DNA of 64,000 bases from Escherichia coli (GTDB lineage Bacteria; Pseudomonadota; Gammaproteobacteria; Enterobacterales; Enterobacteriaceae), in the NCBI RefSeq assembly GCF_030013205.1, contig NZ_CP122648.1. The stretch is one strand, 5' to 3'. How positions within the stretch are numbered: the first letter of the stretch is position 1; the number at the start of each line of letters is the position of its first letter. Made by a program: the position numbers. Below, piece after piece: positions 12,001 through 15,000 of the stretch.

Positions 12001-15000
12001 TGCCAGTAAATCGCCTGCTTTGACCTGCTGGCCTTCCTGGAAATGTAACGCCATCAGTTGACCGTCCACGCGGCTGCGCACCGTAACGGTATTAGCGGCG
12101 GTAATGGTGCCAAGCCCGGTGAGATAACGTGGCACAGCTTGTTCTACGGCAGTCGCCGCCTGAACCGGGGCTAATGGGCCGGAACGCATACCACGGCGAC
12201 CACCCGCTGGCGATTGCTGCGCTTGTTTCGTCGCCCCTGGGGCTGCACTCCGGGAGTCATTGCGGCCTTGCCAGAACCAGAATGCGGCGATGGCGGCGAT
12301 AACCACCACGATTACGATTACCCAACGGGATTTATAACTGCCTTTCATCGTTAAGAGTTTCTCTTCCTGAAACGTTTCGCGGAATGATACTAGTGTAGCC
12401 AGCCAATAAGGGAGAAAAATGGAGGAATTATGAAACACTATCGGGAATCGTCTGAATGGCGGGCACATTTGCGAGCACGCATCCAGTAATAACACATGAA
12501 ACTATTTTATCTACGCGTTAGCGATAGACTACGTGCATGGCGAAAGGAGGTAAGCCGATGATTTCAGCGGGACGCTGAAACGGGAAAGCCCCTCCCGAGG
12601 AAGGGGCCATAAATAAGGAAAGGGTCATGATGAAGCTACTCATCATCGTGGTGCTCTTAGTCATTAGCTGGCCAGCTTACTAAGACTACCAGGGCGGGGG
12701 AAACCCCGCTCTACCCTCACTCCTGAAAGTATGCCTTCACGATAAGATTGTCAATCTGCAGGCTTTGCAGTCTGCGATCCTGCCAGCAAATATTCTTTGC
12801 GAGACGTTACGCAATAATCACACTGGAAACTATTTTATCCGCAAGTCAGCGATAGACTGCATTCAGGGCGAAAGGAGGTAAGCCGACGATTTCAGCGGGA
12901 CGCTGAAACGGGAAAGCCCCTCCCGAGGAAGGGGCCTTAAATAAGGAAAGGGTCATGATGAAGATACTCATCATCGTGGTGCTCTTAGTGATTAGCTACC
13001 CAGCATACTAAGACTACCAGGGCGGGGGAAACCCCGCTCTACCCTCACTCCTGAAATTATGCCTTCACGATAAGATTGTCAATCTGCAGGCTTTGCAGTC
13101 TGCGATCCCGCCAGCAAATATTCTTTGCGAGTCGTTACGCAATAATCACAGAGGAAACTATTTTGTTCACGCGTTAGCGATAGACTGCATTCAGGGCGAA
13201 AGGAGGTAAGCCGACGATTTCAGCGGGACGCTGAAACGGGAAACCCTCTCCCGGAGAAGAGGGCTTTTAATAAGGAAAGGGTTATGATGAAGCACGTCAT
13301 CATACTGGTGATACTCTTAGTGATTAGCTTCCAGGCTTACTAAGAACACCAGGGGGAGGGGGAAACCTCTCCCTAACCCTCACTCCTGAAATTATGTCAC
13401 TCCGCCCTTAGTGTCAATCGACGGCTCTTCGTTCTTGCGAGGCGAATAGCAAAATTTTCTGCGCCGCCGGGCCTAATTCTGAAAGTTTCTTCGTTTGCTC
13501 TTATTTCATTATTGCAATCGGTATGATACCGGACCTCAATAATTCTCTAAGAAAGGATTTCTTATGAGCGAACAAATCACGTTTGCCACCAGCGATTTTG
13601 CCAGTAACCCGGAACCACGTTGCCCCTGCATTTTGTTGCTGGATGTTTCTGGCTCGATGAGCGGAAGACCTATTAATGAACTTAATGCCGGATTGGTTAC
13701 CTTTCGCGATGAGCTGCTTGCCGACCCGCTGGCCTTAAAAAGAGTGGAACTCGGCATTGTGACGTTCGGCCCGGTGCATGTGGAACAACCCTTTACCAGC
13801 GCCGCTAATTTTTTCCCGCCCATCCTGTTTGCCCAAGGCGATACACCAATGGGCGCTGCCATTACCAAAGCCCTGGATATGGTAGAGGAGCGCAAACGTG
13901 AGTATCGTGCAAATGGTATTTCGTATTATCGCCCGTGGATTTTCCTGATCACCGATGGCGCTCCAACCGATGAGTGGCAGGCTGCCGCCAACAAAGTGTT
14001 TCAGGGGGAAGAAGATAAGAAGTTTGCCTTCTTTTCCATCGGTGTTCAGGGGGCGGATATGAATACTTTGGCACAAATCAGCGTTCGTCAGCCTTTGCCA
14101 CTGCAGGGATTACAATTCCGTGAACTGTTTAGCTGGTTATCCAGTTCGCTGCGTTCGGTTTCCCGCTCCACGCCGGGAACGGAAGTTGTGCTGGAAGCGC
14201 CAAAAGGCTGGACGTCAGTGTGAGCTGGCGTCTGGTCTATGCATCAACCGTTGGAACGTCGCACATCAGCGCGGACTTGCCTTGCCAGGATGCCTGCCAG
14301 ATGCAGGTTGCCTGGTTAAATGACCAGCAGCCATTATTGTCGGTATTTGTCGCTGATGGCGCAGGCAGTGTCTCGCAGGGTGGCGAAGGCGCGATGCTCG
14401 CCGTCAATGAAGCGATGGCTTATATGTCGCAAAAAGTGCAGGGCGGGGAATTGGGGCTTAATGATGTCCTCGCCACGGATATTGTGCTGACCATTCGTCA
14501 GCGACTTTTTGCCGAGGCGGAAGCCAAAGAATTAGCGGTTCGCGATTTTGCCTGCACATTTCTGGGACTGATTTCATCGCCTGACGGCACCTTGATTATG
14601 CAGATTGGCGATGGCGGCGTGGTGGTAGATTTGGGGCACGGTCTGCAACTGCCGCTCACGCCGATGGTGGGTGAATATGCCAATATGACGCATTTCATTA
14701 GCGATAAAGATGCTGTTTCCAGACTGGAAACTTTCACCAGCACTGAGCGTGCGCATAAAGTTGCAGCATTTACGGATGGTATTCAGCGACTGGCGTTAAA
14801 TATGCTGGATAATTCTCCGCATGTGCCTTTCTTTACCCCGTTTTTCAATGGACTGGCGGCAGCAACGCAGGAACAACTCGATTTATTACCTGAATTGTTA
14901 AAGCAGTTTTTGTCCAGCCCGGCGGTAAACGAGCGTACCGATGATGATAAAACGTTGGCACTGGCGCTGTGGTTACCATGAAACCCACTTTATATACTGC

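Follow-up and report, generated by a model that had tools for sequence, protein, structure and literature searches.

The window analysed here is a stretch of 64,000 nucleotides from Escherichia coli (RefSeq assembly GCF_030013205.1, contig NZ_CP122648.1). Between the genes mdtA and yegL it carries three head-to-tail repeat units, each of which holds on the plus strand a single hydrophobic ORF of 18–19 codons of the Ibs type and is predicted to give rise, from the minus strand, to an antisense RNA of the Sib family. The features of this region, with the evidence used for each of them, are the following:

11101–12348, minus strand: mdtA, the left flanking gene, which lies outside the modules and fixes the locus (PGAP annotation of an identical record, ORF list).
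12468–13417, no strand: whole array of three head-to-tail Ibs/Sib units of about 328 bp (Tandem Repeats Finder, direct repeats, unit alignment).
12583–12718, minus strand: predicted Sib RNA of unit 1, a SibB allele of 136 nt, terminator hairpin at about 12588–12608 (RF00113, 140.2 bits at 12612–12754; ends from K-12 sibB).
12627–12683, plus strand: ibs ORF of unit 1, an IbsB-type allele, MMKLLIIVVLLVISWPAY, with F15W relative to K-12 IbsB (ORF read; WP_100249772.1, "type I toxin-antitoxin system Ibs family toxin", in the identical record).
12726–12754, minus strand: predicted Sib promoter of unit 1, with -35 TTGACA (12754–12749), a 17-nt spacer and -10 TACTTT (12731–12726) (pattern search, K-12 sibB 5' end).
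12911–13046, minus strand: predicted Sib RNA of unit 2, 136 nt, terminator hairpin at about 12914–12938 (RF00113, 142.2 bits at 12940–13082).
12955–13011, plus strand: ibs ORF of unit 2, IbsB-type, MMKILIIVVLLVISYPAY, in a unit missing from K-12 (ORF read; WP_012767742.1, Ibs family toxin).
13054–13082, minus strand: predicted Sib promoter of unit 2, with -35 TTGACA (13082–13077), a 17-nt spacer and -10 TAATTT (13059–13054) (pattern search).
13238–13381, minus strand: predicted SibA RNA (unit 3), 144 nt, terminator hairpin at about 13241–13266 (RF00113, 149.5 bits at 13269–13417; 143 of 144 nt as in K-12 sibA).
13284–13343, plus strand: ibsA ORF (unit 3), 19 aa, MMKHVIILVILLVISFQAY, identical to K-12 IbsA (ORF read; WP_010723109.1, IbsA).
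13389–13417, minus strand: predicted SibA promoter, with -35 TTGACA (13417–13412), a 17-nt spacer and -10 TAATTT (13394–13389) (pattern search).
13564–14223, plus strand: yegL, the right flanking gene, encoding a vWA-domain protein (ORF list, PGAP annotation of the identical record).

Positions 12200–13800 were read directly from the sequence. Tandem Repeats Finder returned one array at 12487–13396, with a period of 328, 2.8 copies, 89% matches and a score of 1429, while a gap-free repeat finder recovered three-copy families of direct repeats with start-to-start spacings of 328 and 328–335. A preliminary description had proposed three tandem Ibs/Sib modules between mdtA and yegL, and the repeats, the ORFs, the matches to the Rfam model and the synteny with K-12 all agree with it. 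The array that it placed at 12499–13398 is real, but the full span is slightly wider once the Sib promoter of unit 3 is included (approximately 12468–13417).

A pattern search of the whole window found exactly three short ORFs initiated by ATGATG, one in each unit, and their peptides are exactly those given in the preliminary description. A Shine-Dalgarno sequence, AAGGAAAGGG, can be read upstream of the ibs ORFs, and in all three units the ORF and this sequence lie wholly within the region complementary to the Sib RNA. The three peptides are homologous to characterised Ibs toxins, as indicated both by their PGAP names and by their identity or near-identity to K-12 peptides: that of unit 3 is identical, and those of units 1 and 2 differ from K-12 IbsB at one and two of 18 residues, respectively. 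No convincing promoter hexamers were seen upstream of any of the ORFs in a search by eye at the position expected for an ibs promoter from the data on ibsC, in which the 5' end of the mRNA lies about 18 nt beyond the 3' end of the Sib RNA.

On the minus strand, the Rfam covariance model RF00113 (SIB_RNA) matches three times over its full length (1–147), with E-values of 1e-30 to 1e-32 and scores far above the gathering score of 56, which places the three RNAs in the Sib family. The model includes the promoter. The ends of the RNAs were transferred from the annotation of K-12 MG1655 (sibA, 144 nt; sibB, 136 nt), so that the transcript of unit 1 is inferred to start at the G at position 12718, and each predicted RNA starts 8 nt past its -10 hexamer and spans the whole ibs ORF together with its ribosome-binding site. 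The minus-strand promoter pattern proposed earlier for each unit is borne out, since TTGACA, a 17-nt spacer and TA(C/A)TTT, followed by CAGGAGTGAGGG, occur three times in the window and never in 100 shuffled versions of it. In a scan of genome contigs with an 18-nt pattern, about 17 matches are expected by chance, and those in metagenome-assembled genomes of unrelated groups (Lachnospiraceae, Spirochaetales and others) were set aside on that ground.

None of the Sib promoters or terminators was picked up by a generic scan of the window for such signals. Compared with TATAAT, the -10 hexamers agree at just three of six positions, and the T tract of the terminators is short (CUUUCC), which explains why these sites were missed. 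The Sib promoters and terminators are thus predicted features, whose reality rests on homology to the annotated ends of K-12 sibA and sibB. As for the antisense RNAs of about 140 nt ending in a GC hairpin and a T tract that had been described, homology supports three RNAs of 136, 136 and 144 nt, but the T tract is shorter than that description implied.

Minimum-free-energy folds of the RNAs show a closing stem, two internal hairpins, a hairpin formed by ATGATGA and TCATCAT, and a GC-rich terminator hairpin; in the Sib RNA of unit 1, the P1, P2, P5 and P6 stems and the terminator are present. In an alignment with the homologues from Escherichia albertii, Escherichia sp. E1V33, Salmonella and Citrobacter the stems are kept, with compensatory changes in four pairs. 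An alternative reading is that one or more of the units is a decayed relic, with a toxin that is non-toxic or unexpressed and a Sib RNA retained by hitch-hiking only. Some data would fit such decay: IbsB is still annotated in K-12 only as a "putative" toxic peptide, cells that express ibsA stay viable when SibA is missing (Han et al. 2010, PMC2943612), and strains with a single unit exist, so the extra units are dispensable. Nevertheless, the ORF is intact in all three units, the -35 hexamer is perfect in each, the Shine-Dalgarno sequence, the terminator and the Sib stems are all preserved, and the only changes in the peptides are conservative (W, Y or F at residue 15, L or I at residue 4), so that decay is regarded as unlikely.

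The units are not equally related to each other. Unit 3 is 72–76% identical to unit 1 or unit 2, whereas units 1 and 2 share 90.9% identity across the 328 bp and 95.6% in the 136-nt part transcribed as Sib RNA. The earlier characterization of these two copies as near-identical is consequently adequate for the Sib part but not for the unit as a whole. Their 30 differences are unevenly distributed: 22 fall within a segment of 116 nt lying upstream of the 3' end of the Sib RNA (19% divergence in this ibs-upstream part), a stretch which in unit 1 partly corresponds to the flank on the mdtA side, six in the Sib core (at +42, 48, 49, 57, 83 and 110) and two in the promoter and spacer.

The locus is syntenic with the ibsA-ibsB locus of K-12. 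The record of MG1655 is annotated with two units between yegL and mdtA, ibsA/sibA and ibsB/sibB (b4667/b4436 and b4668/b4437, formerly known as the QUAD1a and QUAD1b repeats), in the same orientation to the flanking genes, and the two K-12 copies given for this position in the preliminary description are therefore correct. Unit 3 has the K-12 IbsA peptide and a SibA with one change in 144 nt, and unit 1 is 97.0% identical to the ibsB unit, its Sib RNA matching SibB at 132 of 136 nt. The four changes in this RNA are all located at +45 to +54, in the region of the first target recognition domain (TRD1, see below), while the Sib RNA of unit 2 differs from SibB at seven of 136 nt. Unlike K-12, the window holds an additional IbsB-type unit, that is, unit 2 with its IL...Y peptide, as well as the F15W change in unit 1. 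Judging from these alignments, unit 3 is assigned to IbsA/SibA, unit 1 to an allele of IbsB/SibB, and unit 2 to a further unit of the IbsB type. According to these data, the region between mdtA and yegL most probably consists of three type I toxin-antitoxin modules, arranged in tandem and belonging to the Ibs/Sib family, which together form a common allele of an array of variable copy number, a reading to which we give a probability of about 95%. The assignment to the family relies on the three RF00113 matches, on the synteny with K-12 and on the annotation of Ibs toxins in E. coli K_EC180.

The 1301-bp interval between mdtA and yegL is 100% identical to that of K_EC180 (NZ_CP062203.1), a complete genome in which PGAP, the NCBI pipeline, annotates three CDS, WP_100249772.1, WP_012767742.1 and ibsA (WP_010723109.1), all of them named as Ibs toxins. 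The last of these proteins is found in K_EC180 and in K-12-type records alike. Tandem repeats carry a general risk of mis-assembly, and this is the only argument for the third unit being an artefact of a true two-unit locus. The identical interval in a complete genome, the same structure in thousands of independent complete assemblies, and the pairwise differences of 9–28% between the units (at least 30 positions per 328 bp, which are easily resolved) make such an artefact extremely improbable.

The interval was matched in 5,419 of 5,426 complete E. coli genomes, and copy number was assessed in a sample of 60 out of 5,422 complete E. coli records, taken in even steps down the match ranking. 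Three units, in a single flank-to-flank alignment of 1301 bp with 95.8–100% identity, were found in 24 of these 60 records (about 40%). The K-12 state of two units, with a span of 966–973 bp, was equally represented (24 of 60, K-12 derivatives included), whereas approximately seven records contain four or five units and one or two contain a single one. Among the arrays that were inspected, BL21 and SY019 have four units, CUVET19-1704 has five, WCHEC035123 has one, and AR_0104 has two IbsB-type units without IbsA. The unit architecture of the window is shared by the three-unit arrays of K_EC180, YPE10 and E21845/O/A and by the four- and five-unit arrays just mentioned; in the three-, four- and five-unit arrays of other E. 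coli, IbsA is always the unit nearest yegL, and all units are annotated by PGAP as Ibs family toxins. These arrays differ from that of the window in the number and order of the IbsB-type units and in how two variable patches are combined, and peptide type and unit backbone are decoupled between strains. Whole-unit identity was considered as a measure of orthology between strains and dropped, as it mainly mirrors the position in the array and the first 116 nt or so, which derive from the flank.

Outside E. coli, a single Ibs/Sib unit adjoins mdtA in E. albertii, E. whittamii, Escherichia sp. MOD1-EC7003, two subspecies of Salmonella enterica and one Citrobacter, and Escherichia sp. E1V33 holds two IbsB-type units between mdtA and yegL. 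Variation in the number of Ibs genes between strains has been reported before (Fozo et al. 2010, PMC2887945): K-12 has five of them and O157:H7 Sakai has seven. The same work describes repeated duplications of ibs in enterobacteria (PMC2887945).

The preliminary description had attributed the third copy to a recent duplication. A strain-specific duplication of ibsB/sibB by unequal recombination, which would make the third copy new and unusual, could account for the fact that units 1 and 2 differ at only eight of 212 positions over the Sib RNA, promoter and spacer, and for the fact that taking exactly one unit out of the window, with clean junctions, gives the K-12 arrangement. However, the three-unit layout is collinear, with 95.8–98.2% identity, in some 40% of the sampled complete genomes, and the sample already points to a three-unit state across several phylogroups with an orthologous unit 2. 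Moreover, the peptide of unit 2 (WP_012767742.1) recurs at other positions in four-unit arrays (position 1 in BL21, position 3 in SY019), a different Escherichia species, represented by E1V33, already possesses two IbsB-type units at this site, and the ibs-upstream parts of units 1 and 2 have diverged as described above. The single units next to mdtA in the related species, E. whittamii and MOD1-EC7003 among them, also count against recency. The similarity of the cores holds for all IbsB-type units in all the strains examined, and may thus reflect concerted evolution just as well. For all these reasons, a recent origin is very unlikely, and the claim is not supported.

The three-unit state is instead a common and long-standing allele of an array polymorphic in copy number, as deduced from its collinear layout in 24 of the 60 records, the occurrence of the unit 2 peptide elsewhere and the existence of arrays of one to five units. 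Regarding the mechanism by which units change, unequal homologous recombination is a reasonable candidate, because the alignment of the units shows that the one-unit difference from K-12 has its junction within the near-identical spacer. Units would accordingly be gained or lost by exchange between near-identical segments comprising the spacer and the Sib promoter. The one-unit difference may stem either from a gain in the window strain or from a loss in K-12.

The mechanism of action can be proposed by analogy with the K-12 systems. Sib RNAs are cis-antisense RNAs that cover the translation initiation region and the ORF of their ibs mRNA (Han et al. 2010, PMC2943612). It has been demonstrated that two domains, independent of each other, bring SibC into contact with ibsC, namely TRD1 (+46 to +68, the P5 loop), which targets the ORF, and TRD2 (+99 to +115), which targets the initiation region, after which the pairing spreads and RNase III cuts the duplex (PMC2943612). 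Either domain alone is enough for repression, and Sib RNAs repress only their cognate mRNAs, apart from ibsA, which non-cognate Sibs recognise as well (PMC2943612). The toxicity of overproduced Ibs peptides and their repression by the cognate Sib are known from experiments in K-12 (PMC2943612, PMC2887945). More recently, it has been reported in a preprint that a 19-aa Ibs toxin from Salmonella attaches to subunits a and b in the Fo sector of ATP synthase, which it inhibits, stopping proton translocation and reducing ATP (2025, bioRxiv 10.1101/2025.05.26.656083).

According to this model, the plus strand of each unit would yield a short ibs mRNA coding for a hydrophobic membrane peptide of 18 or 19 residues, while the minus strand would yield a structured Sib RNA of 136 or 144 nt, fully complementary to the ribosome-binding site and ORF of ibs and presumably constitutive, as in K-12. 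First contact between both RNAs would be established through the TRD1 loop, over codons 12–17 of the ORF, and through TRD2, over the translation initiation region. Extension of the duplex would then block translation and expose the mRNA to RNase III, in such a way that no toxin is made. If the toxin were produced, it would be expected to enter the inner membrane and to lower its energisation and the level of ATP.

The recognition domains were mapped onto the 136-nt Sib RNAs with the start and stop codons as reference points, which places TRD1 at about +42 to +64 and TRD2 at +92 to +108. Of the differences between the Sib RNAs of units 1 and 2, those at +42, 48, 49 and 57 fall in TRD1, +83 lies in the P6 loop and +110 is a further single change, whereas the mapped TRD2 is identical. 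The suggestion made earlier that the toxin-antitoxin pairs might be non-equivalent is therefore half right: the TRD1 regions do differ, but the identity of TRD2, together with the published observation that either domain suffices, means that units 1 and 2 may cross-repress through TRD2, and their insulation from each other is doubtful.

A survey of variation covered six E. coli genomes, which together contributed 15 IbsB-type units. Among these units, 13 of the 136 Sib positions vary, six of which are in the mapped TRD1 and four in the P6 loop; the enrichment of variable sites in TRD1, taken as an a priori window of 23 nt, gives a hypergeometric P of 0.009. In the ORF, the TRD1 changes correspond to four synonymous third-position changes (codons 12, 13, 16 and 17) and to W, Y or F at codon 15, and those in the P6 loop to LL, IL or WI at codons 4–5. 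The two patches appear in six combinations (W+LL, Y+IL, F+LL, Y+LL, F+WI and F+IL), with TRD2 being invariant, which indicates exchange between units. As a tentative and rather doubtful extension of these comparisons, the array may act as a recombining cassette system in which the TRD1 loop and the P6 loop are reshuffled between units and strains. The variation could stem from selection favouring antitoxins whose specificities are partly orthogonal within one array; alternatively, it could be the result of drift at the few sites free of constraint from the peptide and the RNA stems. The clustering of the changes fits the published remark that the TRDs are located in variable regions (PMC2943612).

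Other K-12 loci offer points of comparison. ibsC/sibC, whose antitoxin is the family member dissected by experiment (Han et al. 2010), and the tandem ibsD/sibD-ibsE/sibE belong to the same RF00113 family and share the complete antisense overlap and the layout of P1, P5, P6 and terminator, with TRD1 and TRD2 that can be mapped by alignment. They differ in chromosomal location, in encoding 19-aa peptides and in the sequences of their recognition domains; in related species the D/E pair has a spacing of 376 bp. The Ldr/Rdl long direct repeats of E. coli are another type I toxin-antitoxin family in which a small hydrophobic toxin is combined with a cis-antisense RNA and tandem copies share a single intergenic region (Fozo et al. 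2010, PMC2887945). However, their sequences are unrelated to those of Ibs/Sib, and Rdl overlaps the 5' UTR instead of the whole ORF.

Published work already covers this family, its locus, its mechanism and its variation in copy number, and RefSeq carries an annotation of this very sequence. In the literature searched, a systematic census spanning thousands of genomes appears to be absent. With arrays of two and three units being equally frequent in the sample, K-12 is unrepresentative at the mdtA-yegL locus, and arrays of one to five units constitute natural material for studying how cross-talk among near-identical antisense RNAs is avoided or tolerated.

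Across complete E. coli genomes, the interval between mdtA and yegL carries arrays of one to five Ibs/Sib units, and the order of unit types within the array depends on the strain, as seen in SY019, BL21, CUVET19-1704, WCHEC035123 and AR_0104 (loci L003-L007, respectively). In AR_0104-type genomes, this interval holds two units, both of the IbsB type, and lacks an IbsA unit. Among the 20,670 places in the searched E. coli genomes that match the mdtA-yegL query, 10 fall on records that carry a plasmid label; these may be either Ibs/Sib units truly carried by plasmids or replicons that have been mislabelled.

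A single IbsB-type unit (MMKLLIIVVLLVISLPAY) adjoins mdtA in Escherichia albertii NBRC 107761 (locus L011, positions ~1548-1690). The far flank of this unit may differ from that in E. coli, because the locus, some 10 kb long, gave no match to yegL.

The surroundings of the array in the window include the following features:

14220-14981, pphC
~14978-16918, yegI, overlapping pphC and directly after it
28454-28492, 52559-52597 and 42906-42955, plus strand, Rfam matches: JUMPstart elements (two) and an algC RNA motif (one)

While in K-12-type genomes pphC is followed by yegJ on the opposite strand, in the window it is followed directly by the overlapping yegI. The RNA elements lie downstream of yegL, where, judging by the K-12 gene order, the colanic-acid and O-antigen gene clusters are presumably located.

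Within the IbsB-type units of six E. coli genomes (window 12583-13046 and loci L002-L007), variation in the Sib RNA is concentrated in two patches, numbered from the Sib 5' end:

+42 to +57, patch 1, region of the target-recognition domain TRD1, opposite ibs codons 12-17
+80 to +83, patch 2, loop of hairpin P6, opposite ibs codons 4-5

These patches occur in six distinct combinations among the IbsB-type units of the six genomes. The region to which TRD2 was mapped shows no variation among the same units, and the units may therefore engage in cross-talk with one another.
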